A DNA stretch of 32,000 bases from Nonlabens ponticola (GCF_003966335.1 NZ_CP034549.1:750001-782000), one strand, 5' to 3'. Counted from the stretch's first letter, positions 3,242-30,666 are shown. Made by a program: numbers and translations. The notes: generated by a model from the sequence alone, not told the origin.

Positions 3242-3273
3242 TGATAATTATGCTTTCGCGAAAGCGTAACAAC
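3242..3273. repeat. Palindromic repeat element, copy 1 (core GCTTTCGCGAAAGC at 3252-3265; 22-bp arms with one mismatched pair)
   Basis: tgataattaTGCTTTCGCGAAAGCGtaacaac. 30/32 identical to 17150-17181. Lies between the feoB stop and the small Cys-rich ORF. Confidence 0.9.
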
Positions 3274-3284
3274 GACAAATTTAA

Positions 3285-3416
3285 ATGCAGATAATACAAT
3301 ACTTATTAGTCATCATCACCGTGCTGGCTGCGCTAGGCTGGTTATTGCGCAAACAATTGTTCCCGTCGCGACATGATAATTCAAATTGTGGTGACGGCGA
3401 TTGTGGTTGTCACTAG
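3285..3416 (+). CDS. FeoB-associated Cys-rich small membrane protein (43 aa; not in the ORF track)
   Basis: My own translation: MQIIQYLLVIITVLAALGWLLRKQLFPSRHDNSNCGDGDCGCH*. One N-terminal TM helix plus a C-terminal CGxGxCGC tail, 48 nt downstream of feoB. This is the layout of the family of that name found next to feoB in Bacteroidota. Confidence 0.7.
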   Translation: MQIIQYLLVIITVLAALGWLLRKQLFPSRHDNSNCGDGDCGCH

Positions 3417-4277
3417 TCAGACTTTTTCATGGTCATAGGTATCAAGTAGTTGTTTTGCGGCCTCATTAGATATCTTCAAATTATTAATGACAACCTCGCA
3501 TTCTTGACTATTTTTCTCCTTATCATAGGTAATGTTCAGCATAGACAGGTATTGAAAGTCTTCTCTAGCTTCATAATGTATCTCGACGATACTGTAGCTA
3601 TTTCCTCTACCGGCAGATAGATCTTTAATCTTTTCAACTGGATTTGAGTACAACTCATGAACAAAGTTTTGTGCGCCTGTGACAACTCTAAATTGCTTCT
3701 CTAAGCGCAATGTTGGATACCAATGGTTGAACTTATCGCTGTACGGTTTAACCACTTGCTTCATCATAATTAAAACTGGATAGCCAATCAAAATAATTAA
3801 TTCTAATAACCAGATGATCAGTAAAACAGGTCCATCGACCTTTATCCCGAATAATTCATAATAGCCATCGGTGAACAGTAGTTCTATGTTGGCAAAGAAT
3901 GATTCTGTATCTACAAGCCATTCAAATGAAATAAGATAATCGGCTGGTGTGAGAAAGCTGTCATTAAAAAGGTACTGCATGGTTCCTAGCCATTGTAGCA
4001 CCCAAACTATAAATCCAGTTGCTGCAACAAAGGCAACTCTCAAAATCTTACTTCTAATTTTCAAAATCTTGAAAACTTCCATAGTCAATCTATGGATAAT
4101 CATACCTGAACCTAGAGCTGCTAGAAAATTTAAGTAGATAAAAGGATTGACTGTTGTCACCATTGAATAGAGATACCCTAAAACAAAGGCGATGATGGTA
4201 TTTAGCGCAATTGCGATAATCAGGTTTGTATTTTCTGTACTATTTGATTCCTGATAAAATTGTGGTGTAGAATTCAT
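3417..4277 (-). CDS. Hypothetical integral membrane protein (about 4 TM segments plus a ~110-aa soluble C-terminal domain)
   Basis: 286-aa ORF with hydrophobic segments (IIAIALNTIIAFVLGYL, LNFLAALGSGMII, VAFVAATGFIVWVL, VLLIIWLLELIILIGYPVLIM). I recognise no family. Confidence 0.6.
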   Translation of the reverse strand: MNSTPQFYQESNSTENTNLIIAIALNTIIAFVLGYLYSMVTTVNPFIYLNFLAALGSGMIIHRLTMEVFKILKIRSKILRVAFVAATGFIVWVLQWLGTMQYLFNDSFLTPADYLISFEWLVDTESFFANIELLFTDGYYELFGIKVDGPVLLIIWLLELIILIGYPVLIMMKQVVKPYSDKFNHWYPTLRLEKQFRVVTGAQNFVHELYSNPVEKIKDLSAGRGNSYSIVEIHYEAREDFQYLSMLNITYDKEKNSQECEVVINNLKISNEAAKQLLDTYDHEKV

Positions 4278-4323
4278 GTAATTAGTTAAATCGCTAAAGT
4301 AATAATCATTAGAATTGGAACTA

Positions 4324-4356
4324 CAAAAAAAGCTCGTTCTAGTAGAACGAGCTTTT
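4324..4356 (-). terminator. Rho-independent terminator of the cold-shock gene
   Basis: 13-bp perfect stem (4328-4340 / 4344-4356) with a 3-nt loop, followed on the minus strand by a 7-nt U tract. Located 25 nt after the csp stop. Confidence 0.8.
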
Positions 4357-4380
4357 AATTCTTAAGAAAATCTATTTATA

Positions 4381-4575
4381 CTACTGTATAACTCTAACGT
4401 TTACAGCGTTCATTCCTTTTTTTCCTTCTTTTTCTTCATACTCTACTTTGTCACCTTCTCTAATCTCATCGATTAGGCCAGTCACGTGTACGAAGCAATC
4501 TTGATCTGTTCCATCTTCAACGATAAATCCAAAACCTTTTGACTCGTTGAAAAATTTTACGGTACCTTCTTTCAT
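4381..4575 (-). CDS. Cold-shock protein (CspA family, S1-like CSD)
   Basis: 64 aa with RNP1/RNP2-like motifs (KGFGFI, CFVHV). Confidence 0.95.
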   Translation of the reverse strand: MKEGTVKFFNESKGFGFIVEDGTDQDCFVHVTGLIDEIREGDKVEYEEKEGKKGMNAVNVRVIQ

Positions 4576-4601
4576 TGTAATAAATTGTAATAATTAAGTT
4601 C

Positions 4602-4609
4602 CAAATGTA
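4602..4609 (-). promoter_or_regulatory. Candidate -7 box TAcaTTTG for the cold-shock gene
   Basis: Exact TAnnTTTG on the minus strand, 26 nt upstream of the ATG. An upstream TTTG sits only 15 nt away, which is a short spacer. Confidence 0.35.
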
Positions 4610-4684
4610 GATAGATTATTTCGGCAAAATTGTTAATAACTTATTTATTTTCAATTTTGTAGGATTTATAAGCGCTAGAAACAA

Positions 4685-5173
4685 CTATTTTGGCTTGCCA
4701 GCGATATAGGTGGTAAAGCCTTTGACACTGCGGTCGTACATGACGATACTGCCAGCTACTGATACATTGAGACTCCTAGGCGTATTAAATTTTACCAGAT
4801 GGTGGGATTTTTCAATAGCCAGATTGCTCAATCCATGATCTTCTGCACCTAGTAAATAAACACAATTGCGTGGATGTTTAAAATCCTGCAGCAGTTGGGC
4901 ATCGTCCACAAATTCAATGCCTACCAGCATCGCACCTTTAGGTAAATGTTTATAGAAATCTTCAAAAGTCTTATAATGAAAATAGGGTATGGAATCCACT
5001 GCATTGTGCGTATCAGACGCTTGTTTTGCATATCGCTTGCCTATGGTGTAGATAAAGCTTGCGCCTAGATTTTGTGCGCTGCGCCACAAGACGCCCAAAT
5101 TCTCTGGTGTTTTACCGTTCATGATACCTATACCAAAAAAGCCGCTCTCTAGATTATCTGTGTCTTGATTCAT
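4685..5173 (-). CDS. SpoU/TrmH-family RNA 2'-O-methyltransferase-like protein (short, catalytic domain only)
   Basis: 162 aa. SPOUT motifs (NLGVLWRSAQNLGA, YLLGAEDHGLS, LNVSVAGSIVMYD). ATGA overlap with the recQ stop. Confidence 0.7.
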   Translation of the reverse strand: MNQDTDNLESGFFGIGIMNGKTPENLGVLWRSAQNLGASFIYTIGKRYAKQASDTHNAVDSIPYFHYKTFEDFYKHLPKGAMLVGIEFVDDAQLLQDFKHPRNCVYLLGAEDHGLSNLAIEKSHHLVKFNTPRSLNVSVAGSIVMYDRSVKGFTTYIAGKPK

Positions 5174-7329
5174 ACACTGGTAGTTTTTGTACTTACAATG
5201 GCGATGCCCAATCGCAATGTGCCATAGTCAATCTTACCATCTAGGTGTTCATATAAAGGTTTGAGTGCGGTATCATTCTCAAATTGTGGATAGGCTTTTT
5301 CTATGAGCTCTAGGTCTGCGGTGTCGATCAATTTCTTGATATCAACATCACCGTGTGAGGTAAAACGTTTTGATAAATGCGATAAGATGGTGGTAGGTGC
5401 CAGCTCACGTGCAGTCGCTATTTCTTGTACTGTTTTTCCATCCCAGAAAGCTCTTACAGATTCCATGACGGTATCTTTTTTGGGTGACTTCTTTTTCTTC
5501 TTGGGTTTGGGCATCATATCGCGATAGATAAATTCGCCGTCACGAGCGTCTTTATAGTCTTCCATTAATTTGAGAAAAGCAGGCCCGTACTGATCATGTT
5601 TGTGTGAACCAACACCGGTAACATCTGCAAATTCATTGTCGTCTAGAGGTATTCTGGTGGCAATGTCTGTGAGTGTCGCGTCGCTAAAAATCATGTAGGG
5701 CGCGATTTGCTCTTTTTCTGCTAGCTGGGTTCTCAAGCTCTTGAGTGCGAGGAACAATTCCTCGTTGGCCCTAGAAGGGATAGCATTGGCCTGAGCGATT
5801 TTTTTATTTGCAATATCGCTAGCTTTAGGTATTACGGCTAGCGAAACCTCTCTACCATCAAATAACACTTCTTTTCCTTGTGCGGTTACTTTCAGATGAT
5901 TCTGCTCGTGGAAGGCTATTTCCATCAGGCCTTGATTGATCATTTGTATGATGTATTGTTGCCAGTCGTTCCAGCTGGTATCACCACCAGCGCCATAGGT
6001 CTTGATTCCTTGAAAGCCGCTTTCCATGACGGTAGCGTTTTGTGCGCCGCGCAGTAGATCGATAAGTAGATTAAGCGAGACGCGCTCGCCTGTGCGCAGC
6101 AAGGCACTTAGTGCTTTTTGCGCATTTGTAGTAGCATCAAAAAAGTCTGGCTTGTTAAGGCAAACATCGCAATTGCCGCAGTCTTCTTCTAGATATTCAT
6201 TAAAATAGGACAGCAGCATGCGTCTGCGGCAAGTAAGTGCCTCGGCAAACTGTTTCATGCGTTCCAGTTTTGCGATTTGTACCTGTGCATTGCCGCTACC
6301 ATCTGCAAAGCGTCGCAGCTGGATCACATCTGCATAGCTGTGAAACAACAATGCATGACTATCAATGCCATCGCGACCGGCGCGACCTATTTCCTGATAA
6401 TAGCCTTCAATATTTTTAGGCATATTGTAATGGATCACAAACCGCACGTTTGATTTGTCGATTCCCATTCCAAAAGCGATGGTCGCCACTACGATCTTTA
6501 TCTCGTCTTCAATAAATTGTTCCTGTATGCTTTCGCGAAAGCTAGCTTCCAATCCGGCATGGTATGCCGCGACAGAGTATCCACTAGCACTCAACTTACC
6601 TGCAATGCTCTCACAGGTCTTGCGGCTCAAGCAATAAATAATGCCAGATTGATCTTGATAATTTTTGAGAAATCGCTGTATTTGCGTGAGTCGATTATTG
6701 CCAGGACGTACCTCAAGCCTGATGTTGGGCCTGTCAAAAGAAGAGACGTACTCACCAGCATGGGCAATGGCCAGTTGTTTTTTGATGTCTGCACGTGTGG
6801 CACGATCTGCGGTAGCGGTAAGTGCGATGAGCGGCGCTTGCGGATAGCTGGTTTTTAAGTAAGCTAGTTGGGTATAAGCTGGTCTAAAATCATGACCCCA
6901 AGTGGAAATACAATGAGCTTCATCAATAGCGATGAGTGATACAGTCGCCTGTTGTAAATGATTGTTTAAAAGCGAGATACTTTCTGGCGCCACATAAATC
7001 AATTGCAGTGCACCAGCGGCCAGTTGTCGATAAAGATCTTCTTGCTGTGCAGCATCTTGTGTGCTATTGAAAAAGGCAGCGGCTATACCATTAGCCTTTA
7101 AGGCGTCCACTTGATCCTTCATTAGCGCGATGAGTGGTGAAATTACCAGCGTGACGCCGTCTAGCATCAGGGATGGCAGCTGGAAACACATGGATTTACC
7201 ACCACCGGTAGGCATGACGACCATCAGGTCCTTACCGGCTAGGACATCATCGATGATTTCTTCCTGCAGTAGCCTGAAGCTATCATAACCAAAATGTTTC
7301 TTGAGAATTTCTAATTTTTGTGTACTCAT
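5170..7329 (-). CDS. recQ: ATP-dependent DNA helicase RecQ (with poly-Lys linker and extra C-terminal HTH-like domain)
   Basis: 719 aa. Helicase motifs (PTGGGKSMCFQLP, DEAHCIS, YYQEIGRAGRDG), RQC zinc cysteines (CGNCDVC), an HRDC-like segment, then PKPKKKKKSPKK and a ~100-aa tail. Confidence 0.95.
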   Translation of the reverse strand: MSTQKLEILKKHFGYDSFRLLQEEIIDDVLAGKDLMVVMPTGGGKSMCFQLPSLMLDGVTLVISPLIALMKDQVDALKANGIAAAFFNSTQDAAQQEDLYRQLAAGALQLIYVAPESISLLNNHLQQATVSLIAIDEAHCISTWGHDFRPAYTQLAYLKTSYPQAPLIALTATADRATRADIKKQLAIAHAGEYVSSFDRPNIRLEVRPGNNRLTQIQRFLKNYQDQSGIIYCLSRKTCESIAGKLSASGYSVAAYHAGLEASFRESIQEQFIEDEIKIVVATIAFGMGIDKSNVRFVIHYNMPKNIEGYYQEIGRAGRDGIDSHALLFHSYADVIQLRRFADGSGNAQVQIAKLERMKQFAEALTCRRRMLLSYFNEYLEEDCGNCDVCLNKPDFFDATTNAQKALSALLRTGERVSLNLLIDLLRGAQNATVMESGFQGIKTYGAGGDTSWNDWQQYIIQMINQGLMEIAFHEQNHLKVTAQGKEVLFDGREVSLAVIPKASDIANKKIAQANAIPSRANEELFLALKSLRTQLAEKEQIAPYMIFSDATLTDIATRIPLDDNEFADVTGVGSHKHDQYGPAFLKLMEDYKDARDGEFIYRDMMPKPKKKKKSPKKDTVMESVRAFWDGKTVQEIATARELAPTTILSHLSKRFTSHGDVDIKKLIDTADLELIEKAYPQFENDTALKPLYEHLDGKIDYGTLRLGIAIVSTKTTSV
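6529..6542. repeat. Palindrome core copy 2, inside the recQ CDS (encodes S-F-R-E-S)
   Basis: Perfect GCTTTCGCGAAAGC. The 19-mer TATGCTTTCGCGAAAGCTA (6526-6544) is identical to 30496-30514. Confidence 0.95.
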
Positions 7330-7391
7330 GATATTTGTCTGTATGGCGTTTATAAAAAGTAGGATATAAATTTACAATGCTTACAGTTAAA

Positions 7392-7422
7392 TGTCATGCT
7401 GGGTTTATCACCTTAACATGAC
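7392..7422. repeat. TGTCATGCTG-family spacer repeat (weak hairpin GTCATG...CATGAC)
   Basis: tgtcatgctgGgtttatc (7392-7409) is 17/18 identical to 19104-19121. Lies in the recQ/lipoprotein divergent spacer. Confidence 0.7.
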
Positions 7423-8966: not shown

Positions 8967-10664
8967 ATGCGCTGGACACTCAAACCTGCTCCTGATCCTA
9001 GTAAAACCACCCAACTTGCTCAAGAGCTTAAAATTGATGAGGTACTGGCTGGTTTGTTGGTGCAACGTGGTGTTGACGCTTTCGCGAAAGCAAAATCATT
9101 CTTCAGGCCATCTCTTGACGACCTGCATGATCCACTCTTAATGACAGACATGCAAGCGGCTGTAAAACGTATAGCTAAAGCTGTGGCAAATCAGGAAAAT
9201 ATACTGGTGTATGGCGACTATGACGTGGACGGTACCACCAGTGTAGCGCTGGTTTCATCTTTTTTGCAATCGTATTATCCTAATGTAGCTACCTATATTC
9301 CAGATCGTTATGAAGAAGGTTACGGCGTGAGTTATCAGGGAATTGATTATGCCCACGACAATGATTTCTCGTTGATCATAGCTCTAGATTGTGGCGTTAA
9401 AGCCGTTGATAAAGTAGCTTATGCAAGTGAGAAGAATATTGATTTTATCATCTGCGATCACCATAGACCTGGCAAGAAATTACCTGAAGCTATAGCGGTT
9501 CTAGACCCAAAACGTGATGACTGTGAGTATCCCTATGATGAATTATGCGGTTGTGGTGTCGGTTTCAAATTGTGCCAGGCCATCGTGCAAGCAAACGATT
9601 GGGATTTTGATTTACTCATTCCTTATCTAGATCTAGTAGCTACCGCTATCGGTGCAGATATCGTCCCGATTACAGGTGAAAACAGGATTCTTGCGCACCA
9701 TGGTTTGCATGTGATAAATTCAAGCCCGCGTGCTGGATTCAAAGTGATTATTGAGAATATGAAACTCAAGAACAAATTCACTATTACAGATGTGGTTTTC
9801 AAGATCGCACCACGCATCAATGCCGCTGGTCGCATGAAACATGGACAACACGCTGTGAGTCTCATGACTGAAACTGATGAGCTATCTGCTAAAACCATGG
9901 CACTGGAGATTGAAGAATTCAATAGCGATAGAAAAAGTGCCGATCAATCAATAACAATAGAGGCGCTTGATCAAATTGAGGCGTTAGGAGAACAAGAACG
10001 CTACACAACAGTAGTGTATGATGCGAGCTGGCATAAAGGAGTAATAGGAATAGTTGCCAGCCGCTTGATTGAAAGATATTATCGACCTACTCTAGTATTT
10101 ACAAAAAGTGGTGACTATCTCGCTGCAAGTGCACGCAGTGTCAAGGGATTTGATGTGTATAATGCTCTAGAGCAATGCGGTGATTTGATCGAGCAATTTG
10201 GCGGTCATAAATATGCAGCAGGTTTGACCTTAAAAGCAGAAAACTATGATGCGTTTAAGGCTCGATTTGAGGAAGTGGTTTGTGCCACAATTTTAAATAA
10301 GGATCTAGTCGAGGAAATCAAAATAGATAGCATTTTACCGCTAGCAAGTATCAGCCCAAAATTCTACCGTATTCTCAAACAAATGGAACCATATGGGCCC
10401 GGAAATATGACGCCTATTTTCATGACGCAACAGGTTCAGGACACTGGCTATGGTAAATGCGTGGGTCATGAAGATGCTCACTTAAAGATACGAGTTACAA
10501 AACCTAATGATTCTAAACACGATTACAATGCGATAGGTTTTAATCTAGGTTCAAAATGTGATTTAATTGTAGATAAGAAGAAATTTGATATTGCTTACAG
10601 CATCGATGAGAATGAGTGGAACAACGAGGTAAGCCTGCAATTGAGATTGCGAGACATTAGCTAG
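8967..10664 (+). CDS. recJ: Single-stranded-DNA-specific 5'-3' exonuclease RecJ
   Basis: 565 aa. DHH-family motifs (VYGDYDVDGTTS, LDCG, ICDHHRP) and a DHHA1-like GGHKYAAG. Confidence 0.95.
   Translation: MRWTLKPAPDPSKTTQLAQELKIDEVLAGLLVQRGVDAFAKAKSFFRPSLDDLHDPLLMTDMQAAVKRIAKAVANQENILVYGDYDVDGTTSVALVSSFLQSYYPNVATYIPDRYEEGYGVSYQGIDYAHDNDFSLIIALDCGVKAVDKVAYASEKNIDFIICDHHRPGKKLPEAIAVLDPKRDDCEYPYDELCGCGVGFKLCQAIVQANDWDFDLLIPYLDLVATAIGADIVPITGENRILAHHGLHVINSSPRAGFKVIIENMKLKNKFTITDVVFKIAPRINAAGRMKHGQHAVSLMTETDELSAKTMALEIEEFNSDRKSADQSITIEALDQIEALGEQERYTTVVYDASWHKGVIGIVASRLIERYYRPTLVFTKSGDYLAASARSVKGFDVYNALEQCGDLIEQFGGHKYAAGLTLKAENYDAFKARFEEVVCATILNKDLVEEIKIDSILPLASISPKFYRILKQMEPYGPGNMTPIFMTQQVQDTGYGKCVGHEDAHLKIRVTKPNDSKHDYNAIGFNLGSKCDLIVDKKKFDIAYSIDENEWNNEVSLQLRLRDIS
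9078..9091. repeat. Palindrome core copy 3, inside the recJ CDS (encodes A-F-A-K-A)
   Basis: Perfect GCTTTCGCGAAAGC in codon phase 0 of recJ. Confidence 0.95.
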
Positions 10665-13035: not shown

Positions 13036-13788
13036 TTAGAATTTATCTAATTTTAGATCAATTCCATTGAATACTCCATAGGTGTAATGCGTGATCCAAT
13101 CACCTAGATTTATATACTTTGAGCTTTCTGATAGTTCAATCTCCAGCGGTAAATGTCTGTGGCCAAAGATGAAGTAGTCATAATGTTCATCTTCTAATTT
13201 CTTGCGGGCATATTGAGCCAGCCATTCTTGATCTTCACCTAGAAAAATAGCATCGTCGTCGCCTGAGATCAGTTTATTCTTGACAGATAGATGACGAGCT
13301 AGCCGCACACCTATATCGGGATGGATCCATTTAAAGCACCACTGGAAGAATTTATTGGTAAAGATCTTTTTCATGCGTTTGTAACCCTTGTCACCAGGTC
13401 CTTTGCCATCGCCGTGGCCTATAAAAAACTTCTTACCGTTGAATTCAAAAACCTGAGGCTCGTGATAAACAGGTATGCTCAGCTCATCCTCAAAGTAACC
13501 GAACATCCACAGATCATGATTACCCACAAAAAAATAGATAGGAATACCGCTATCTCTGATCTCGGCCAGTTTTCCCAATACGCGCACTTGACCTTTAGGC
13601 ACCACCGTATCGTACTCATACCAGAAGTCAAATAGATCGCCCAGCAAAAAAATCGCTGCTGCATCCTTTCTAGCCATTTCCAGCCAATCCAGAAATTTAC
13701 GTTCACGAGGTTTGCTCAGTTCCTGAGTTGGTGCACCCAGGTGATTATCGCTTGAGAAATAGACTTTTTTTCCTTCGGGAATCTGCAT
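13036..13788 (-). CDS. lpxH: UDP-2,3-diacylglucosamine diphosphatase (LpxH)
   Basis: 250 aa. Metallophosphoesterase motifs (SDNHLG, GDLFDFW, GNHD, GHGD, GHRH) in LpxH-like spacing. Confidence 0.8.
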   Translation of the reverse strand: MQIPEGKKVYFSSDNHLGAPTQELSKPRERKFLDWLEMARKDAAAIFLLGDLFDFWYEYDTVVPKGQVRVLGKLAEIRDSGIPIYFFVGNHDLWMFGYFEDELSIPVYHEPQVFEFNGKKFFIGHGDGKGPGDKGYKRMKKIFTNKFFQWCFKWIHPDIGVRLARHLSVKNKLISGDDDAIFLGEDQEWLAQYARKKLEDEHYDYFIFGHRHLPLEIELSESSKYINLGDWITHYTYGVFNGIDLKLDKF

Positions 13789-13843
13789 GCAGCAAAGATA
13801 GTGTTATGCACTAATTGTTTGATAGCAGTAAGTTTTGATGGGA

Positions 13844-13865
13844 TTACGCTTTCGCGAAAGCGTAA
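13844..13865. repeat. Palindromic repeat element copy 4: perfect 22-bp palindrome TTACGCTTTCGCGAAAGCGTAA
   Basis: Perfect self-complementarity over 22 bp, in the spacer between the RskA-like lipoprotein gene and lpxH. Confidence 0.95.
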
Positions 13866-13945
13866 TAGTCAAAAATCACACGTACTAAAAGTAAGGGCAG
13901 CCTATCTGCAAACAAACTGCCCTAACAAAACAAACCTAACAACTA

Positions 13946-14839
13946 CTACCTGCGCACGGTGCCTCTAGGGAAAGACTGTTGCACATAGTTTTGAAAGTTC
14001 TGTGATGCTGGTGCTGTTGCGGCACCTGCTGTAGCAAACAAAGGTTTTAATGTGAATGGTGCTGGAGAATTGTCTGGCACTGGCTCAAGACTGATTACCA
14101 CGTTACGACCTACCACACTGAATGGTAAACTCTCACCATTTGGCAGATTGTTGAAGAAATCCTCGCCAGGTACTGGTGGTCCTGCATTGTTTTCTGTCCC
14201 GCTAAATCCATTATCATCATCTCTATCACCAAAGTCGGTAAAAGTTCCTGTACTCAATGGGCCGCTATCACCTATTACCCAGCCTTCATAAACCCAACCT
14301 TCTGGCAATTCAGGTAGGTCTAGATTTGCCGTAGGTGGCATCCCTGGAGAACCGAACCATACGCCAGCCTCATCATTACCATTGTTACCATTAAGTTCAT
14401 CAGTAGGTGTTCTTAGGAAAAAGCTACCTGCTGCATCAGAAAAATCACCTGGTGCTGGGCCAAAATCTGTCGATAATGTAACAGTATCACCATCAAAGCT
14501 ACCTGCTAGGTACTTGACATCGCTGGGCGCTGGATCGTTATCTGGCGACGGTTCAATAGTTAGGATAAATGCGGTGGCTGCATCCAGATCATCTTGGGAC
14601 ACCTCAAAGTCTGTGGTGCTCAGGTCACCATTTGCATTTACATTAAAGGTTCCTGTGGTAACGGGCACGCCATCTACCATGACCCAACCTTCATAAGCAT
14701 AATCAGGTCCTAGATCATCCAGTCCTTGAATGTCCAGTTTAAGATCTGCCGTCTGGTTTGTGGATACATCATCATCGTTGTCAGAACATGCTCCTAGAGC
14801 AAGAGCGACAATTGCTAGGGTTAAAAGTGAATTTTTCAT
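13946..14839 (-). CDS. Lipoprotein with two tandem RskA-like (anti-sigma-K C-terminal-like) domains
   Basis: 297 aa with lipobox LGAC. Internal duplication: YEGWVMVDGVPVTTGTF...LTIEPSPDNDPAPS and YEGWVIGDSGPLSTGTF...ISLEPVPDNSPAPF. This resembles the YxxW...G.P.S.G / EP..G...P pattern of the RskA extracytoplasmic domain. Confidence 0.55.
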   Translation of the reverse strand: MKNSLLTLAIVALALGACSDNDDDVSTNQTADLKLDIQGLDDLGPDYAYEGWVMVDGVPVTTGTFNVNANGDLSTTDFEVSQDDLDAATAFILTIEPSPDNDPAPSDVKYLAGSFDGDTVTLSTDFGPAPGDFSDAAGSFFLRTPTDELNGNNGNDEAGVWFGSPGMPPTANLDLPELPEGWVYEGWVIGDSGPLSTGTFTDFGDRDDDNGFSGTENNAGPPVPGEDFFNNLPNGESLPFSVVGRNVVISLEPVPDNSPAPFTLKPLFATAGAATAPASQNFQNYVQQSFPRGTVRR

Positions 14840-14970
14840 TGTTTATATAATTTGTTATTGTTGATGTAAATAACAGGAGATGATGTAACACCAGTGTTGC
14901 AAGAAATTAAAAGTATTATCACGGCCTGTGATGCTTTTGTGATATACTTATAGTTCATTTATTCCAGCTT

Positions 14971-15666
14971 ATGAAAACACTGATCATAGAAGACGATAAG
15001 GAACTTTCAGACCTGCTTGCCCTGCATGTGGACGATCTGGATACAGAGATCATACAGCGTTATGACGGCCAGTCGGGTCTGGAAGCAGCACTGGAAAACG
15101 ACGTGGATTTGATCCTGCTGGACATTACTATGCCTAAACTGGATGGTATAGAAGTATGCAAACGCATACGCAAGGAAAAGAATACTCCTATAATAATGGT
15201 TACTTCACGCAGCGAGGAAATTGACAAGGTCCTGGGTCTGGAAATAGGAGCAGATGATTACATCACAAAACCATTTTCCATACGTGAACTCAAGGCACGA
15301 ATCAAGGCTGTTTTAAGAAGAACGGAAAGTGTCAAAAGTACCGAGCAAAAGGATTCACAAGACGTATTGCAATTCACAGATTTAGGCATTGATATTCCCA
15401 TGAGAAAAGTGATGGTGAGAGGCGAGCGCATAGAATTATCACCTAAAGAATTTGAGCTGCTGGTAGTACTGGCAAGCAACCAAGGTAGGTCCTTCTCGCG
15501 CGGCGAGTTGCTCAACATGATTTGGGGTTACAATTTTTCAGGTTATGAGCATACGGTGAACTCTCACATCAATAGATTGCGCATTAAGGTAGAGAAAGAC
15601 ATGAGCGCACCAGAATACATACTGACCACTTGGGGCATAGGCTACCGATTTAATGAAGAGATATGA
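14971..15666 (+). CDS. OmpR/PhoB-family response regulator
   Basis: 231 aa. Receiver domain (LLDITMP) plus a winged-helix output domain (ending TTWGIGYRF). Confidence 0.95.
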   Translation: MKTLIIEDDKELSDLLALHVDDLDTEIIQRYDGQSGLEAALENDVDLILLDITMPKLDGIEVCKRIRKEKNTPIIMVTSRSEEIDKVLGLEIGADDYITKPFSIRELKARIKAVLRRTESVKSTEQKDSQDVLQFTDLGIDIPMRKVMVRGERIELSPKEFELLVVLASNQGRSFSRGELLNMIWGYNFSGYEHTVNSHINRLRIKVEKDMSAPEYILTTWGIGYRFNEEI

Positions 15667-17123
15667 AAAAGAAGTTTGTTCTTAAACTCTGGTTGATCAT
15701 AATAGGTCTGGTAGGATTGATGGCGGTGGCTTATGCTGCGATCACCACACATTTTCAGCGTAGTCTACAAACGCAGGTGCAGCAGGAGTTGCACGCGACA
15801 CTCGCACAAGACCTGGTGGATGAGAAATTTAAAGATGATGTGCCCTTTAATGCAGATGGCAGTGTGAACAAAGCTTTCTTTGGTGATTTGATGCACAACA
15901 TGATGGCCATAAATAGGACGATTGAGATTTACCTTCTTGATGAGTCGGGTCGCATTTTATACAGCGTTGTTCTCGATCCCAAAGAGAACGATGCCGCTCA
16001 ATTGGTGCCATTAGAACCTATACAGCAGTTTATTAATCGGGAAAACGGTGAGGTCATCAAAGGTGTCGATCCTACTGATCCAGGTAACAAAAAGATTTTT
16101 AGCGCAGCACCTTATTCCACTGATCTAGGCGACGGCTATGTCTATATAATTCTTGAGGGAAATAAACTAGCCAGCGTTAATGCAAGCATCCTTGATACAG
16201 AGTTGGCAACCTTTACGCTTTGGCTACTAGTGATTACTTCGCTTTTTATCATGGCAATAGGTCTAGGTGCGGTAACGCTGGTTACCAGAAACCTGCGTCG
16301 CATGACAGCAGTCATCACAGATTTTAGAGATGGCGACTTGCAGGCGCGCATCCTTAATCCTAGTGAGAGTGACTTTCCAGTTTATGCACAGGCCTTTAAT
16401 GAAATGGCCAACACGATTACTTCAAACCTAGAAGAATTAAAAGGCGTTGATGAATTGCGCAGAAACCTAATCGCAAATGTTTCTCACGATCTGCGCACGC
16501 CACTCGCCATTATTAGAGGCTATGCCGAAACCGTAAAAGATAGCCTGCAGGATTTACCTCTTGAAAAGCAGCACAAATATTTGAGCATCATAGAAAGCAA
16601 CAGCCAGAAACTTACGGGATTGGTAGAGCAGCTTTTTGAATATTCAAAACTGGAAGCGAGACAAATTCAGCCGCATAAAGAGCATTTCTCAATTTCAGAT
16701 CTGGCGCAGGATATCATCGTCAAATATGAATTGCTTGCCAAAGAAAAATCCATTGATCTCAAGCTCAATAAAGCACAAGAAAATATAATGGCTCATGCAG
16801 ATGTCGCTCTTATGGAGCGCGCCATTGAAAATCTGCTGCAAAACGCTATTAAATACACCCAAGAACATGGCGAGGTCGTCATCGACATCCAACAAATCGG
16901 GACTGATTGTAAAGTCTCTGTCATTGACAATGGCGCTGGAATAGAAGAAGAGTTCCAGAAATCCATTTTTGCCAGGTTTCAAACCGCACCATCCAGCCGT
17001 GGTCAGGGCACAGGAATTGGTCTAGCCATCGTCCAGAAAATCATGGAACTGCACGACACAACTATTGAGTTGGTAAGCCGCAAACAGCAGGGCAGTACTT
17101 TTAGCTTTATGCTACCTGCCTGA
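15663..17123 (+). CDS. Membrane sensor histidine kinase (2 TM, periplasmic loop, HAMP, HisKA, HATPase)
   Basis: 486 aa. H box SHDLRTPL, N box QNAIKY, G boxes DNGAGI and GTGIGL. ATGA overlap with the regulator gene. Confidence 0.95.
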   Translation: MKKKFVLKLWLIIIGLVGLMAVAYAAITTHFQRSLQTQVQQELHATLAQDLVDEKFKDDVPFNADGSVNKAFFGDLMHNMMAINRTIEIYLLDESGRILYSVVLDPKENDAAQLVPLEPIQQFINRENGEVIKGVDPTDPGNKKIFSAAPYSTDLGDGYVYIILEGNKLASVNASILDTELATFTLWLLVITSLFIMAIGLGAVTLVTRNLRRMTAVITDFRDGDLQARILNPSESDFPVYAQAFNEMANTITSNLEELKGVDELRRNLIANVSHDLRTPLAIIRGYAETVKDSLQDLPLEKQHKYLSIIESNSQKLTGLVEQLFEYSKLEARQIQPHKEHFSISDLAQDIIVKYELLAKEKSIDLKLNKAQENIMAHADVALMERAIENLLQNAIKYTQEHGEVVIDIQQIGTDCKVSVIDNGAGIEEEFQKSIFARFQTAPSSRGQGTGIGLAIVQKIMELHDTTIELVSRKQQGSTFSFMLPA

Positions 17124-17149: not shown

Positions 17150-17181
17150 TGATAATTACGCTTTTGCGAAAGCGTAACAAC
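17150..17181. repeat. Palindromic repeat element copy 5 (22-bp palindrome at 17156-17177 with one C-to-T change in the core at 17165)
   Basis: tgataattaCGCTTTTGCGAAAGCGtaacaac, 30/32 identical to 3242-3273. Confidence 0.9.
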
Positions 17182-17209: not shown

Positions 17210-18346
17210 ATGATCAATAAACGCCTGCTTATCAAAAACTTGCTAGCTCATCTGGATGAGAATAGTTTTTATGACAAGAAACTGCGCATTGATCTAGGCA
17301 ACAAAGAGGGCAAGGCAAAATTCCTCAAACACATCTGTGCGCTGAGTAATTCAAACCCGCATAATAACAGTTATATCGTCATCGGGATTGATGACAAGAA
17401 AAATGAAATCCTGGGCACTGAATTTTTTGATGATTCTAAACTGCAAAATCTGATCAATGCCTACCTGCAAAATGCGCCGCAGGTCATGTATGAAAATATC
17501 GCATTTCCGCACTTGTCGTCTGACAAGGTCGTGGGTTTGGTAACCATAAATGCTCAGGAAAAGGTGACCGCACTGCGCAAGAATATTTGGAAATACTACG
17601 GTGGCGCAGTGTTTTATCGAGATGGTAGTATCTCGATGCCCAAGGATTTTGGCGGTATGCCCAGCGTCAATAATCCTGCAATTGTTGAGCAGCTAGAAAA
17701 AAAAGCCAGTAACAATATCGAGCTCACGCTGGATCGAGTCATGCAATTCATGGCGCGGGAACAACAAGGCCTGCACACGGCTTATAAAGTTTTTAAAGAG
17801 CAGTTTGTCATTTGCTGGAGTGGTAAGGTAAAAGAGCGCAAAAGTCAAGAGTATTTTAATAGGGTAGATATCGAGCTGGTCAACGAGCAAGTGCGCCTGT
17901 TTTATAGTGCTCTGGATGAGGTGCAGATATCCTACAACGATGATGAGTTTTCCATTCTAGAATATGTGGAGCTCAGCGTGGGTGACAAATCATCCTATTA
18001 CCCATTGGAGCGCAAGACTTTAAAGTTTGCACCTAATGGCACCTACAAACTCACGTCTAAAATTTTGTTCAATCCTCCGTATTATGATCGCAAGACCTTG
18101 CATCATATCTACAATTCAAACCTATCACTGTTGCACAGCATTGCTTCTGGACATCCTTTAAATGAACGCCAACTACAGGACTTGAGACGCCTTCCAGAAA
18201 CTATGCTGGTATGCAAATTCAACAATGTAGGCGAGCCTATTGACAAGATGAAAGCCCACAAAAACTTTCTCAAAACTTTCCCAGATACTTATGAAGCCTA
18301 TAAGGAAGCCCTGCGTATCTTGAGAAAAGTAAAATACAACTCGTGA
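17210..18346 (+). CDS. AlbA_2/Schlafen-like putative nucleic-acid-binding domain protein with an uncharacterised C-terminal half
   Basis: 378 aa. The N-terminal ~130 aa fit the AlbA_2 pattern (E..FYDKK......FLKHICALSNSNP..NSYIVIGIDDKKNEILG). The rest is unrecognised. Confidence 0.5.
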   Translation: MINKRLLIKNLLAHLDENSFYDKKLRIDLGNKEGKAKFLKHICALSNSNPHNNSYIVIGIDDKKNEILGTEFFDDSKLQNLINAYLQNAPQVMYENIAFPHLSSDKVVGLVTINAQEKVTALRKNIWKYYGGAVFYRDGSISMPKDFGGMPSVNNPAIVEQLEKKASNNIELTLDRVMQFMAREQQGLHTAYKVFKEQFVICWSGKVKERKSQEYFNRVDIELVNEQVRLFYSALDEVQISYNDDEFSILEYVELSVGDKSSYYPLERKTLKFAPNGTYKLTSKILFNPPYYDRKTLHHIYNSNLSLLHSIASGHPLNERQLQDLRRLPETMLVCKFNNVGEPIDKMKAHKNFLKTFPDTYEAYKEALRILRKVKYNS

Positions 18347-19086
18347 GAACCATAGTCATAGGCGACATCCACGGTGCACATCGCGCCCTTACCCAATTAC
18401 TAGATCGATTACAACCACAACCAGACGACTGTCTCATTTTCCTGGGCGATTATGTAGACGGCTGGTCACAGAGCTATGAGGTACTGGAGTTTTTGATCAC
18501 GCTTTCGCGAAAGCGTAAACAGCAAAATCACACTGCACCGATCTATCTGCGCGGTAATCATGATGAGTTGGTGCTCAATTTTCTCGTTAAAGATGAGCGC
18601 AATGAGCAGTGGTTGCATCATGGTGGGACAAGCACAGTCGAAAGCTATGCCAACAGAAGCGATGCAGATCGTGCAAGGCATGTCGCATTCCTAATTGACG
18701 AGTTGCTAGATTTTCTAGAGTTGGACGGTAATGGATTTTTCCATGCTGGATTTCACAACTTGCATGGACCGCACTATGAATACTATAAAAACTTGCCCTA
18801 TTGGGATCGCACCCTTTGGGAAATGGCCTTGTGCATAGATCCCAACATGTCACCAGATAATGACCGCTATCCTAATAGGCTCAAGATGTATAAGGAGATT
18901 TTTATAGGCCACACGCCTACCACACGACTAGGTGAAATGAAACCCATTCACGCTGCCAATGTCTGGAATGTGGACACTGGCGCAGCCTTTCTAGGACCGC
19001 TAACGGCTATGTGCATAGAAACCAAAGAAATCTGGCAAAGTGATCCAGTCCATACGCTTTACCCTAATGAAGATGGTAGAAATTAA
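18343..19086 (+). CDS. PPP-family metallophosphoesterase (lambda-phosphatase / PrpA / ApaH-like)
   Basis: 247 aa with a GTG start in a GTGA overlap with the upstream stop. Motifs GDIHG, GDYVDGW, GNHDE, GHTP. Confidence 0.85.
   Translation: MRTIVIGDIHGAHRALTQLLDRLQPQPDDCLIFLGDYVDGWSQSYEVLEFLITLSRKRKQQNHTAPIYLRGNHDELVLNFLVKDERNEQWLHHGGTSTVESYANRSDADRARHVAFLIDELLDFLELDGNGFFHAGFHNLHGPHYEYYKNLPYWDRTLWEMALCIDPNMSPDNDRYPNRLKMYKEIFIGHTPTTRLGEMKPIHAANVWNVDTGAAFLGPLTAMCIETKEIWQSDPVHTLYPNEDGRN
18499..18516. repeat. Palindromic repeat element copy 6, inside the phosphatase CDS (18-bp perfect palindrome; encodes T-L-S-R-K-R)
   Basis: ACGCTTTCGCGAAAGCGT. The flanks (tgatc...taaacagc) resemble the intergenic element flanks. 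Confidence 0.95.
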
Positions 19087-21715: not shown

Positions 21716-21760
21716 GATCACGCTGCTTCGACTACGCTCAGCATGTATTTCGCGAAAGCG
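21716..21760. repeat. Composite repeat: inverted CATGCTGAG-family unit fused to a degenerate half of the TTTCGCGAAAGCG palindrome
   Basis: CTCAGCATG at 21737-21745 (reverse orientation of the 19108 family), followed 2 nt later by TTTCGCGAAAGCG (21748-21760). Confidence 0.7.
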
Positions 21761-25119: not shown

Positions 25120-25133
25120 GCTTTCGCGAAAGC
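25120..25133. repeat. Palindrome core copy 8, in the gpsA/lipoprotein divergent spacer
   Basis: Perfect GCTTTCGCGAAAGC with flanks tcA...Gga. Confidence 0.95.
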
Positions 25134-27368: not shown

Positions 27369-28234
27369 TACAGCACGTTGAGTAGTTGTTCTTTTATTTT
27401 TTCCAGCTCATCTTTCATTTGAACCACTAGTTGCTGCATGGCAGCATGGTTTGCCTTGCTACCTATGGTATTGATCTCACGACCTATTTCTTGAGAAATA
27501 AAAGCTAGTTTTTTTCCTTGAGATTCCGGAGCATTCATAGTTTCCAGAAAATACTTCAAATGATTTTCTAGCCTTACTTTCTCCTCTGTAATGTCGTATT
27601 TCTCTAGGTAATAGATTAGTTCTTGTTCAAAACGATTCTCATCTACCTTTTCCTTAAGATCGATCACAGCTTTTTCTAATCTTGATCGAACATCAGCAAG
27701 TCGTGTCACATCTTCTGATAAAATTTGATGAAGTAGATTTTGGATGTTTTGAATTCGTTCATTAAAATCACTTTCCAGAACTTTTCCCTCTTGAGTTCTG
27801 AAGGATTGCACTTCTTGCAAGCATTGCGACGCTAGATCTAACACTTTTTGTAGATCATCTTTGGATACCTCGTGACTGCCAGAGGCAAAAATATCTGTAA
27901 AACCAGATGCGATTTGGAGTAGGGTAGCATCATCGACACTATCAGTTCCAGGCACTTGTTTAAGTTGCTGGATGTAGCTGGCAAGCTTATCGGGATCTAA
28001 TGCCTCTACATTGCTGCTATCCGTGCTTTCTACATGCAGTGAGAAATCTATCTTACCACGTTTAAGCAGTGATGCGATGAGCTTTCTTATTTCTAGCTCT
28101 TTACCGCGGTAGTCTGACGGCATGCGCATATTGAGATCGATATTCTTGCTGTTGAGCGTGCGTATCTCAATAGTGATCTTATGTGATGAGGTTTGAGTGA
28201 CTGTCTTCCCATAGCCAGTCATAGAGGTAATCAT
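27368..28234 (-). CDS. yicC: YicC-family protein (stress-induced, endoribonuclease family)
   Basis: 288 aa. N-terminal MTGYG motif and a C-terminal DUF1732-like EIGREINTIGSKAN. TAATG junction with gmk. Confidence 0.85.
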   Translation of the reverse strand: MITSMTGYGKTVTQTSSHKITIEIRTLNSKNIDLNMRMPSDYRGKELEIRKLIASLLKRGKIDFSLHVESTDSSNVEALDPDKLASYIQQLKQVPGTDSVDDATLLQIASGFTDIFASGSHEVSKDDLQKVLDLASQCLQEVQSFRTQEGKVLESDFNERIQNIQNLLHQILSEDVTRLADVRSRLEKAVIDLKEKVDENRFEQELIYYLEKYDITEEKVRLENHLKYFLETMNAPESQGKKLAFISQEIGREINTIGSKANHAAMQQLVVQMKDELEKIKEQLLNVL

Positions 28235-28275
28235 GCAATCTATTTTAGACTGTCAAAGATAATTTAAACTAGCAG

Positions 28276-28875
28276 CTAGTTAAAATCATATTCCTCGTCT
28301 GCAATCTTGTTGCGCAATCTACTTAATGATTGTTGTCTAATGCCTAGATAAGAGGCGATATCCTTGAGAGGTAAGCGCTCCTCAATCTCGCTAAAACGCT
28401 CCATGAACTTCAAATATCTTTCAGTCGCGTCACGAGTTATCATCCTTGCTTTTTCATCCAGCATATTGTGATAACGTTGCAGCATCAATTTGTGAAATGC
28501 TGGCGAGAGGCCTGGATACAATTTATTCATGTATTCAAAATCTTGATATTTAAAACACATGACTTCACCTGCTTCAACACAAGAAATTTGAAGATTAGAA
28601 GGCGTTTGATCTATAAAGCTGTACATCGATGTCATGACATCATTATCTGCCACAAAGCGTATGGTGTGCATTTCTCCTTTTTCATCTATAATACTGCCCT
28701 TAAGTATTCCAGATTTAATAAAGTAGATATTGTCGCATACCTCACCTAGATGTAGTAAGATTTGCTTCTTCTTTACTTTAACGACCTCCAGCATACTGAA
28801 GATCTCATTTGCATAAGTTAAAGAAGGCCTATCACCATCGCCCGTTAGATCGTGAAGGAATTCTGGTAGTTCCAT
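28276..28875 (-). CDS. Crp/Fnr-family transcriptional regulator
   Basis: 199 aa. cNMP-binding beta-roll followed by a C-terminal HTH (DIASYLGIRQQSLSRLR). Confidence 0.8.
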   Translation of the reverse strand: MELPEFLHDLTGDGDRPSLTYANEIFSMLEVVKVKKKQILLHLGEVCDNIYFIKSGILKGSIIDEKGEMHTIRFVADNDVMTSMYSFIDQTPSNLQISCVEAGEVMCFKYQDFEYMNKLYPGLSPAFHKLMLQRYHNMLDEKARMITRDATERYLKFMERFSEIEERLPLKDIASYLGIRQQSLSRLRNKIADEEYDFN

Positions 28876-28938
28876 TTAGTTACTCTTTTCACTGACAAAG
28901 ATGATAAATCTTAGTTGTATAAACAACATATATTGAGA

Positions 28939-29958
28939 TTAATACAAGATACTGTCCTTAGGCTCAACAGGTTCGGGAAGCTCTTTCTCATCAAGAATGT
29001 CACGCAAATCAATCTCTATTGTCCTACATAAAGCCGTCATAGGGACATCATTTATTCTACCTTCAAACGGGTCTTCACTGTTATCACCCACTACTTCCAT
29101 GGTACTAAAAATCCACATGACCAACACAGAAAATGGAATTTGTAGGAAAATGAACCACGGTTGCATATCAGGATCGAGAATGGAAGTGGTGTGCTCGTCA
29201 AAAACGTTGAGCATACCAAAAGGTAGCAGCAGGATGAAAATCCACGTAAAAACCTTGGTAAAATAGCCATATTGTCTAGGGAAAGGTGTGTTTTTAATAC
29301 GCTCGCATTTACCCTGTAGATTATAGAATTCTTCTAGGCAGCTGTGCATCTGGTCTTCCTGGAACCCATCAAGAACGCCAGCCTTGCGAAGGCGTTGAAT
29401 AGTTCTCGCTTGATTTTTTACTAGATGCGTGGCTGGATTGACTCTATTCTTAAGATCAGCAAACTCACGCATCGGTACAAAGTTGTAGGCCTCATTACAG
29501 GCGATATTACGCTCCGCATGTTTGTCAAACATTTTTTCAATGGCTCTAGTTTCTTTGATCGCCCAGGATTTGGGTTGACGCAATTGTACTCTTAAGGCAT
29601 TGATCCATGCAATGTGACGGTAGATAAGTTGTTTTTGTTCCTTGTACTGCTGTTCTTCATCGTCCATTTCTATGAAGCTTATTGCTTGTATCGCCCAGGT
29701 ACGACTATAATTAACGATGCCACCCCAAATTTTACGACCTTCCCAAAATCGATCATAACTCTGACTATTTTTAAAACCTAAGTAAAACGAAACTGCAATA
29801 CCGATGACGGTTAGTGGCTGGAAAGGAATAGCAAGAAACTTCCATCCTAGGAATTGATAGATGGAGAAAATAACGCCACAATAAACTGTAAAGATTAAAA
29901 GATTGAGCCAGCCATATTTGAGAATGATGCTCCACTCAATGTTGCGTTTGATATACAT
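28939..29958 (-). CDS. Bestrophin/UPF0187 (YneE-like) family anion channel
   Basis: 339 aa. An N-terminal TM pair and a characteristic FKNSQSYDRFWEGRKIWGGIVNYSR segment. Confidence 0.8.
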   Translation of the reverse strand: MYIKRNIEWSIILKYGWLNLLIFTVYCGVIFSIYQFLGWKFLAIPFQPLTVIGIAVSFYLGFKNSQSYDRFWEGRKIWGGIVNYSRTWAIQAISFIEMDDEEQQYKEQKQLIYRHIAWINALRVQLRQPKSWAIKETRAIEKMFDKHAERNIACNEAYNFVPMREFADLKNRVNPATHLVKNQARTIQRLRKAGVLDGFQEDQMHSCLEEFYNLQGKCERIKNTPFPRQYGYFTKVFTWIFILLLPFGMLNVFDEHTTSILDPDMQPWFIFLQIPFSVLVMWIFSTMEVVGDNSEDPFEGRINDVPMTALCRTIEIDLRDILDEKELPEPVEPKDSILY

Positions 29959-30000
29959 AAGGTCGTGATTGGTTTCGTAAATTTAGCCCATTGATTTTTA

Positions 30001-30666
30001 ATGGCTTCGACACTACTTTCAACGAGATTACTTACCGTAGCGCAACAGGAACTCGTCCTGAATAGTGGTCATGGTCTGGTACATTATGCTTGCCTTGAAA
30101 TTATAGATCATGAGGTATCGATGATCGATATATCGGCATCTCACATCATAATCACCAGCAGCAATGCAATCACAGCGCTTAAAAAAATCCCTAGAGACCT
30201 AATACAACAGGTTTACTGTGTAGGTGAGAAAACTGCAGCGCGAGTAGAGGACATGGGTTTAAAACCAGCTATCGTTTCTAGCAATTCAACACAACTGGCT
30301 CACGCCATTTCACAACATCATCCTACACAAGAGTTTCTGTTTCTATGTGGCAAGGATCGACGCGAGGAATTGCCAGCTATTCTCAAGAAGAATAATGTCC
30401 TTTTTAAAGAGATAATCGTCTATGAATCGGTGATGGTTCCCAAGAGCTTTGATCGTAAATTTGCAGCAGTTTTGATGTTTAGTCCTCGTGGCGTTTATGC
30501 TTTCGCGAAAGCTAATAACGCACAACCAGACAACGTTATATGTATAGGCGAGACGACCGCTCAAGCAGCAAGAGAAATTTATAAGGTCGTGCACGTTGCC
30601 ACCAAGCATACGGTAGAAAACGTCATAGTAACCGCTATTAAAGTATTGAACAATGATAAAAAATGA
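30001..30666 (+). CDS. hemD: Uroporphyrinogen-III synthase
   Basis: 221 aa. HEM4-like two-lobe pattern (ITSSNA...; FSPRGV...IGETTA). 14-nt overlap with hemE supports the assignment. Confidence 0.7.
30496..30514. repeat. Palindrome core copy 9, inside the hemD CDS (core 30499-30512 encodes A-F-A-K-A)
   Basis: Perfect GCTTTCGCGAAAGC in codon phase 0. The 19-mer is identical to 6526-6544. Confidence 0.95.

Follow-up and report, generated by a model that had tools for sequence, protein, structure and literature searches.

The 32,000-nucleotide stretch of Nonlabens ponticola DNA considered here (GCF_003966335.1 NZ_CP034549.1:750001-782000; referred to, in its whole length, as the window) raises the question of why one exact 14-bp palindrome, GCTTTCGCGAAAGC, should be met in it seven times, in spacers as well as inside conserved genes, and of what kind of element such a repeated word represents. 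The answer developed below is that, within the Flavobacteriaceae, the Nonlabens-Dokdonia clade has GCTTTCGCGAAAGC as a hyper-abundant genomic word of its own.

Abundance and distribution of the word

All seven perfect copies listed in the first-pass annotation of this DNA were recovered by pattern search at their given positions, as was a one-mismatch copy (GCTTTTGCGAAAGC) at 17160-17173, while what had been described as a half copy at 21748-21760 is really a 12/14 match at 21746-21759 (Table 1). The window contains nine matches at two or fewer mismatches, compared with a mean of 0.12 expected from 100 dinucleotide-preserving shuffles, and Markov models (order 0-5) that learned from 735 kb of related sequence, after masking of the word, predict 1.5e-5 to 8e-5 perfect copies per 32 kb. 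Against the seven perfect copies in the window stands an expectation of at most 2e-4. The enormous enrichment that had been claimed thus holds against both kinds of control, with the word occurring at least 1e5-fold above compositional expectation and not at the level of composition-matched shuffles.

A scan for the 14-mer in one genome per species gave at least 120 blocks. Of the 120 listed, 91 are classed by their titles as flavobacterial; most of these belong to Dokdonia, Nonlabens or uncultured members of the Flavobacteriaceae and have 1-3 copies in 8 kb, and the other 29 are single matches in unrelated phyla. The positions are chromosome-wide, for instance at 0.88, 1.38, 2.15 and 2.82 Mb in Dokdonia sp. 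R86516. An unbiased sample is provided by 80 metagenome loci (1.0 Mb) picked solely by RecJ homology, three of which bear the word, namely L121, the closest relative and syntenic with the window (four copies), L145 (two copies) and L152 (five copies), which shares the metagenome assembly ERZ651776 with a Dokdonia metagenome-assembled genome. The 77 other RecJ-chosen Flavobacteriaceae loci (955 kb) contain zero copies, even at one mismatch, and no other iterated 12-mer of the kind expected for a dialect of the word was found in these outgroup loci, where tandem repeats alone were seen. In the word-bearing lineages, loci not chosen for the word hold 18 copies in 83 kb (~1 per 4.6 kb); three more Nonlabens loci obtained via HemD, among them L319 (Nonlabens sp. 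YIK11) and L320 (Hel1_33_55), have 4, 7 and 4 perfect copies per 20.7 kb, and the zero-truncated counts of the listed blocks give a density of ~1 per 6.7 kb. Extrapolated from density, a genome would contain roughly 450-650 copies. The HemD encoded in the window is 100% identical to the uroporphyrinogen-III synthase of Nonlabens ponticola, which is encoded on a 2.87-Mb contig. As a separate observation, the outgroup flavobacterial locus L138 has three dispersed occurrences of ATGGCCAATGAT (13008, 14133 and 19653), each preceded by a CT-rich stretch, which resemble paralogous gene starts and are unrelated to the word.

The word is also met in viral contigs, where the matches listed are mostly chance singletons, together with a handful of low-GC contigs with 2-3 copies each, the density in the four contigs of known length being at least ~1 per 13 kb. 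Two IMG/VR contigs with head modules have three copies each: those of L289 (191, 6705 and 11185) are found inside an HNH gene and a head-protease/major-head gene, beside portal/adaptor genes, and one of those of L253 (4210, 7851 and 10955) lies within a head-maturation protease gene, so that the word is also written into phage genes. A search of cultured phages with a 36-mer, which is insensitive, returned two chance mycobacteriophage matches alone. A further set of ~50 kb prophage contigs with 65% GC (L201, L210, L213, L217, L219, L226 and others) has a single 14-mer each with identical flanks, acgacg before and cgcgat after it; this copy represents a single gene site conserved across a family of high-GC prophages, unrelated to the flavobacterial word, and a related site is present in the tape-measure gene of Mycobacterium abscessus prophages. 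In phage contigs the word could mark the hosts of Nonlabens and Dokdonia phages, and it is more generally a possible marker for flavobacterial phage host assignment and binning.

Anatomy, placement and maintenance

In 150 perfect copies, the core is preceded by the flank consensus T-T-(A/C)-C and followed by G-(T/G)-A-A, with C at -1 in 79%, G at +14 in 80%, T at -3 in 71% and A at +16 in 69% of the copies. Position -2 differs between the genera, being A in 59% and T in 8% of the Dokdonia copies, and A in 34%, T in 36% and C in 28% of the Nonlabens copies (P=1e-8); the core is invariant, and the flanks are genus-specific dialects, as in the dialects of the DNA uptake sequences (DUS). Perfect palindromes of at least 22 bp are found at 10/35 spacer copies versus 3/102 coding copies. 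The claim of four intergenic-type 22-bp palindromes in the window stands in part: only the copy at 13843-13866 is a perfect palindrome of at least 22 bp, and the 22-mers at the copies 3252, 17160 and 18501 contain a single mismatch each. Beyond about +/-4-10 nt of the core there is no positional conservation across copies, and no copy-specific complementarity was detected between the two shoulders, same-copy and cross-copy alignments being alike (P=0.86), so that the shoulders share composition only. A longer element or hairpin as the unit was rejected on these grounds, given that no conserved sequence and no copy-specific pairing are found outside the core. The half-sites GCGAAAGC and GCTTTCGC are near background once the perfect copies are masked, which rules out an asymmetric half-site and leaves the whole palindrome as the unit. 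Outside the word, TCGCGA is not avoided and is present only ~2-fold above the outgroup level.

The shoulders, which extend for ~20 nt, are on each strand rich in G+T before the word (5') and rich in A+C after it (3'), and form a mirror-image strand skew over ~20-25 nt, in which C drops from 19% to 8-11% 5' of the word on either strand while G and T rise. In the 5' shoulder, TGTG, TTGT and GTTG are enriched 2.5-3-fold, and AACC, CCAC and CACC are depleted 4-14-fold. Spacer copies show the skew, and so do coding copies in each of the three phases; it is symmetric per site, in that left-C and right-G depletion are positively correlated, which rules out a one-sided skew due to the direction of replication. 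At the two RecJ sites described below it comes with the word, and the recQ copy, which is missing from L121, is without it. A deamination footprint fits positions -14 to -5 and fails at -24 to -15, where C gives way to G, and a signal-peptide origin, for which some AFAKA copies at cleavage sites might speak, is contradicted by the presence of the skew in all three phases and in spacers.

By crude gene calls, 105/162 copies (~65%) are located within called open reading frames (ORFs) and 57 outside, although 86% of the sequence is ORF, which means that spacers are enriched 3.4-fold; of 151 copies, 102 fall in open frames that are 150 or more codons long. Copy density is highest in divergent spacers, at 0.88/kb compared with 0.41/kb in convergent ones, and in the window convergent, tandem and divergent spacers are all used, as determined from the ORF listing and Pfam, which also bore out the assignment of four perfect copies to recQ, recJ, a Metallophos phosphoesterase gene and hemD. 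All three codon phases are in use (58:24:20), giving the peptides AFAKA, (R/S)FRES and (T/S/A)LSRK. In ORFs of the word lineages, AFAKA is encoded by the exact word in 60/61 cases, out of 64 possible encodings, and FRES in 30/30, with neither peptide found in outgroup ORFs; the constraint is therefore on the DNA and not on the peptide. About nine phase-0 copies, judged by eye, follow just past a hydrophobic run near the N-terminus of an ORF, as in KLKYILVFLFVS-AFAKAQ-QLQ (L110 157, L071 7055, L026 4855, L100 6347, L043 1303, L113 3059 and others), where the word gives an AxA site of the signal-peptidase type with Q after it; it seems to be cheaply tolerated at such places. Altogether, 15 phase-0 copies are within 50 codons of the upstream stop.

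The equal length of the orthologues at five gene sites (RecJ sites A and B, RecQ, HemD and the Metallophos gene) indicates that copies arise by substitution and not by insertion, with no target-site duplication. RecJ site A is RGVDAFAKAK in both the window and L121, where the other RecJ loci (75 captured) have RGI(E/D)(T/S)(F/Y)(E/D)xAK at the same length, and in the outgroup DNA a mean of 7.9/14 positions already match the word, chance being ~3.7. At RecJ site B, the word is common to L145 and L152 and missing from the window and L121 without an indel. In RecQ, the window reads AYHAGL-EASFRESIQ versus SHEERENVQ and TAEERNKIQ; the corresponding site of L121, GTTTTCTCTTTCTT, matches at 6/14 positions without an indel, and the window copy looks lineage-specific and young from this comparison. 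In HemD, 10/10 Nonlabens proteins read SPRGVxAFAKAN, Gillisia, Gramella, Christiangramia, Zunongwangia and other outgroup members read SPSGVxSF(V/T)(S/K)EN at equal length, and the hemD DNA of three further Nonlabens species has the word at the same site. For the Metallophos copy (18501), L121 has the word at the orthologous site 14881. The copies thus overwrite existing codons by substitution, altering amino acids, with no insertion.

Once present, the sites are conserved far above neutral expectation. The species compared have 72-78% nucleotide identity, at which no more than 1.3-6.1% of the aligned 14-mers stay identical; the word, in contrast, is perfect in 18 of 20 comparisons of its sites, has one mismatch in another and is missing from the last (recQ). 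From L319 to L320, 4/4 sites are kept, and from L320 to L319 4/5, plus one with one mismatch; from the window, 2/2 are kept in L319, 2/2 in L320, 1/1 in L321 and 2/3 in L121, and between L145 and L152 it is 2/2 in each direction. The copy at 25120 is kept in L319 (5791) and L320 (5851), and the degenerate copy at 21746 has perfect counterparts at the orthologous positions of L319 (2497) and L320 (3101). Turnover is seen in the recQ copy and in spacer copies that differ between the window and L121. A common two-mismatch variant, GCTTTCGCGGAAGT, is found at an orthologous place of L319 (13229) and L320 (13224), in an EI24-family gene, and resembles the word either by chance or as an old, decayed copy that coding constraint has frozen.

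The mismatch spectrum is bimodal, with sites at 0, 1, 2, 3 and 4 mismatches numbering 144:13:14:18:148 in the 91 listed blocks and 18:1:2:4:22 in unbiased sequence, compared with ~4, 34 and 207 sites predicted by the outgroup rate at 2, 3 and 4 mismatches in 652 kb; perfect copies are more than 10x as frequent as one-mismatch copies, despite 42 possible one-off neighbours. The spacing had been called irregular, which did not hold, since the gaps are more even than random (coefficient of variation in the window 0.36, P=0.003). Of the 67 gaps between neighbours, 9.1 would be expected under 500 bp and 17.4 under 1 kb, and the numbers observed are none and two (P<2e-4 in simulations), the smallest gap being 856 bp, so that the spacing is over-dispersed.

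Possible functions and known systems

Any function of the word is something that we infer from the observed lineage-specific hyper-abundance and its attributes. Taken together, the clade restriction, the excess, the whole palindrome as unit, the dialects, the placement by substitution, the maintenance at the DNA level and the even spacing assign the word to the class of signature words, for which Elhai distinguished three classes of hyper-frequent words, Chi, uptake sequences and HIP1. The perfect 14-bp dyad with its symmetric flanks argues for duplex recognition by a symmetric protein. In the mechanism proposed here, the word would be read as duplex DNA by a dimer-like, sequence-specific protein, the flank preference of which drifts between genera. 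New copies are made by base substitution, the clearest case being RecJ site A, where the sequence already resembled the word, and are then kept letter-perfect as DNA from species to species, at least ~0.9 kb apart; they would be spread and maintained by biased fixation, either through molecular drive or through direct selection. Among the functions considered, a "self" tag for DNA uptake and recombination, in the manner of DUS and of the uptake signal sequences (USS), ranks first in our analysis, as a tentative choice that we would not yet call probable. Consistent with it, natural competence with a preference for self DNA and no known signal is described in Flavobacteriaceae (Riemerella; PMC7965970), and HIP1, which is conserved and quasi-periodic (PMC5861425), is now argued to be an uptake signal (bioRxiv 10.64898/2026.06.24.733823) and improves transformation.

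Several features count against such an uptake tag as the product of a simple point-mutation drive, namely the palindromic form, the low density, the copies in phage genes and the missing intermediates. A perfect palindrome at ~1 per 4.5 kb contrasts with asymmetric USS/DUS at ~1 per kb. USS and DUS are rarer in recently acquired DNA, and the carriage of multiple copies in prophage structural genes is unlike them. Drive by point mutations would predict intermediates, and the mismatch spectrum has no cloud of them, sites with three or four mismatches being at or below background, while the recQ copy differs from the L121 orthologue at 8/14 positions without an intermediate. The even spacing could equally stem from selection against rearrangement between close repeats, and the genomic copy number is an extrapolated one.

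A different function for a symmetric duplex-binding protein, which we regard as unlikely, is that of a chromosome-organising site, bound by a nucleoid- or partition-type protein in the manner of Noc at its binding sites (NBS), SlmA at its binding sites (SBS) or MatP at matS, and acting as a loop anchor or a domain marker every few kb. A perfect palindrome of 14-16 bp with symmetric flanks is typical for a dimeric DNA-binding protein, the over-dispersed spacing and the strong conservation of sites would suit such a role, and HIP1 has been so interpreted (Xu et al.; PMC5861425). It is more difficult to reconcile with the overwriting of conserved proteins at an amino-acid cost, as in RecJ, where TFEEAK became AFAKAK, and why phage head genes should carry sites for a nucleoid protein of the host is not obvious. 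Noc, SlmA and MatP have tens of known sites per genome, compared with ~500 for the word, and these are not known to overwrite conserved proteins. The consensus of parS is a 16-bp palindrome, TGTTNCACGTGAAACA, with TTTC and GAAA 4 bp apart; a parS/Noc-type site was rejected for the word, the sequence of which differs, with these blocks 2 bp apart and not 4, and the copies of which are chromosome-wide and not few and origin-proximal. Recognition of a single strand was considered as well, in that d(GCGAAAGC) makes up the 3' half of either strand of the word, which could act through this mini-hairpin, for example by stopping or loading a helicase-nuclease like a bidirectional Chi, by capping DNA against exonucleases or by signalling priming, a role to which we would give little credence. 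The density of Chi in E. coli is likewise ~1 per 4.5 kb. The octamer forms an extremely stable mini-hairpin resistant to nuclease and to single-stranded DNA-binding protein, with a melting temperature of 76.5 C, and is found at the primase site of phage G4 (PMC13037366). In its most specific form, to which we would give as little credence, the word would be a novel genome-wide single-strand signal, a bidirectional palindromic Chi or exonuclease stop made of two overlapping d(GCGAAAGC) mini-hairpins, one per strand, the G+T-rich shoulder becoming a protected recombinase-loading 3' tail, and resident phages would copy it as self. The mirror-image, strand-specific GT-rich 5' shoulders, which base pairing leaves unexplained, and the phage-gene copies, which would fit mimicry of a host "self" signal, speak for a single-strand role. 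However, isolated half-sites of this sequence are not enriched, the known Chi sequences are 5-8 nt, asymmetric and orientation-biased, the skew is limited to ~25 nt where resection tails are long, and it is not a pure transition (deamination) footprint, given the change from C to G at -24 to -15.

It has to be considered, too, that the word may have no function, and that a lineage-specific methyltransferase or a repair of the very-short-patch type acting on TCGCGA/CGCG converts near-matches and restores copies. Such a by-product of biased repair, which we hold to be highly doubtful, is suggested by the core, which contains both TCGCGA and CGCG, by the near-matches at 3-4 mismatches, which are fewer than in outgroups, as if drained, by the presence of the word in host-resident DNA including prophages, and by HIP1, the abundance of which tracks orphan methyltransferases (PMC4390886). 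A patch of 4-6 bp, however, does not explain 14-20 specified positions, the minimum spacing, the accompanying shoulders or the flank dialects, and TCGCGA elsewhere reaches only about twice the outgroup level. The two remaining explanations are largely refuted. A mobile palindromic element, either a repetitive extragenic palindrome (REP) or bacterial interspersed mosaic element (BIME) mobilised by a REP-associated tyrosine transposase (RAYT), or a miniature inverted-repeat transposable element (MITE), landing in genes as well in the way of the Rickettsia palindromic elements, would account for a dispersed palindromic repeat with spacers enriched 3.4-fold and for two copies flanking a window-specific 3.3-kb segment of three genes. 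Yet there is no length change at any of the five gene sites, nothing is conserved beyond about +/-4-10 nt and no copy-specific inverted repeats are found, 65% of the copies are in ORFs, they are solitary and never clustered, no transposase or RAYT is encoded among the 29 window ORFs scanned, and unrelated copies match one another as well as the 47-nt inverted ends of the 3.3-kb segment do. A gene-level element, which in spacers would be an intrinsic terminator or a hairpin stabilising RNA and in genes a peptide motif under selection (an AFA-KA signal-peptidase site), gains from the folding of the 22-mer at -7.3 kcal/mol and from the phase-0 copies, both those at signal-peptide-like N-terminal sites and the 15 near an upstream stop, but the 3' side is A-rich and not T-rich, divergent spacers are the most populated ones and most copies are intragenic, on which grounds the terminator was rejected; all three frames are in use, synonymous encodings of the peptides are absent, and no Rfam family matches in the window.

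Of the systems known, HIP1 of cyanobacteria (GCGATCGC) is similar in being palindromic, vastly over-represented in one clade and present in coding and non-coding DNA, as well as in the retention of orthologous sites beyond neutral expectation, the non-random spacing and a debated role (uptake, recombination or nucleoid structure). It differs in sequence and phylum, in its length of 8 bp compared with 14 bp (20-22 bp consensus) for the word, which is ~5-15-fold rarer per kb and has mirror-image skewed shoulders and genus flank dialects, and in a methyltransferase link reported for HIP1 alone. DUS (Neisseriaceae) and USS (Pasteurellaceae) are asymmetric 9-12-mers at ~1 per kb with a demonstrated uptake bias, ComP being the DUS receptor. 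With them the word shares its lineage specificity, a conserved core with flanks of lower information, dialects between genera, a genome-wide presence in genes by substitution where it is tolerated, enrichment in spacers and the dominance of perfect copies, and USS are reported to be evenly spaced, like the word. Unlike these asymmetric motifs, which are found in both orientations, it is a perfect palindrome with half-sites at background, its density of ~1 per 4.5 kb is lower than in the known examples, and it is present in prophage structural genes. Chi, the crossover hotspot instigator of RecBCD/AddAB, is likewise a genome-wide, taxon-specific and over-represented word at ~1 per 4-5 kb, in and outside genes, with a G+T-rich context on the prospective 3'-tail strand; it is, however, a short (5-8 nt), non-palindromic word co-oriented with replication, whereas the word described here has no orientation and far more information.

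REP/BIME and MITEs are dispersed short palindromes as well, and the word is enriched in spacers, where its copies are most extended. REP elements, in contrast, are extragenic, imperfect, often clustered and tied to RAYT, whereas 65% of the copies of the word are in ORFs, they are never adjacent or clustered, and no RAYT is seen among the window ORFs; MITEs insert with target duplications, and no copy of the word shows insertion, so that nothing points to a MITE or REP family bounded by target-site duplications. The suggestion of the first-pass annotation that the word behaves more like HIP1, an uptake signal or a protein-binding word than like a REP is accordingly backed by the copies in ORFs, the equal-length orthologues, the constraint at the DNA level, the clade restriction and the conservation of sites. 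With the mini-hairpin d(GCGAAAGC) described by Hirao (PMC13037366), the 3' half of the word on each strand is identical; that octamer, however, is defined by a physical property and is not a genomic repeat family, and alone it is not enriched here.

Among the full texts searched, no paper was found that contains the word or that brings Flavobacteri* together with "highly iterated palindrome"; those in which "palindrom" occurs alongside Dokdonia or Nonlabens deal, judging by titles and abstracts, with other subjects, and the one family-level match for "DNA uptake sequence" concerns competence without a signal (PMC7965970). The word is thus apparently an undescribed counterpart of DNA-uptake sequences and HIP1, similar to HIP1 and USS, in a new phylum, and distinctive in its length, symmetry, shoulders and dialects. 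If the uptake tag were true, Bacteroidota would have their first DNA-uptake sequence, which would also be the first of palindromic form. Hyper-frequent words are few, and each has opened recombination, transformation or chromosome biology; this one gives a 22-36-bp probe for finding the reader protein, lets sequence-specific uptake in marine flavobacteria be tested directly and provides a second, independent system for the 30-year-old HIP1 question.

Copies in the window and their neighbourhood

Table 1. Copies of the palindromic word in the window, with their genomic context
Position	Copy	Context	Flanks, symmetry or reading
3252..3265	perfect	convergent spacer, feoB (stop 3236) / ORF 3417-4277 (minus)	flanks ttat/gtaa
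6529..6542	perfect	inside recQ (5170-7329, minus)	read S-F-R-E-S
9078..9091	perfect	inside recJ (8967-10664, plus)	read A-F-A-K-A
13843..13866	perfect, core 13848-13861	tandem spacer, RskA-like gene / Metallophos gene	24-bp perfect palindrome ATTAC-core-GTAAT
17156..17177	1-mismatch, GCTTTTGCGAAAGC, core 17160-17173	spacer, histidine kinase gene / SLFN/DUF5929 gene	flanks TTAC/GTAA
18499..18516	perfect, core 18501-18514	inside Metallophos gene 18343-19086	18-bp palindrome; read T-L-S-R-K-R
21746..21759	2-mismatch, TATTTCGCGAAAGC, decaying	convergent spacer	
25120..25133	perfect	divergent spacer, gpsA (start 25044, minus) / ORF starting 25229	
30499..30512	perfect	inside hemD (30001-30666)	read A-F-A-K-A

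The 3.3-kb segment mentioned above (13946-17123) comprises three genes, for an RskA-like anti-sigma factor, an OmpR-type response regulator and a histidine kinase, is missing from the otherwise syntenic L121 and is flanked on each side by a copy of the word (13848 and 17160). A recombination cassette was considered for it and rejected, the 47-nt inverted similarity of its ends (79%, I1) being no better than that of unrelated copies (74%, I2), and no copies of the word are found at other breaks of synteny. In L121, the segment is replaced at 13480-13560 by a short spacer with tandem heptamers, (AGAGTTC)n, followed by hexamers, (TTAAAC / TTAAGT)n.

Further downstream, at 17210-19086 of the window, a SLFN/AlbA_2 + DUF5929 gene overlaps by 4 nt the Metallophos gene that contains the copy at 18501, and the pair is kept in L121. 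Both genes have weak matches to PADLOC candidate defence singletons (PDC-S50 at 1e-8, PDC-S10 at 2e-5).

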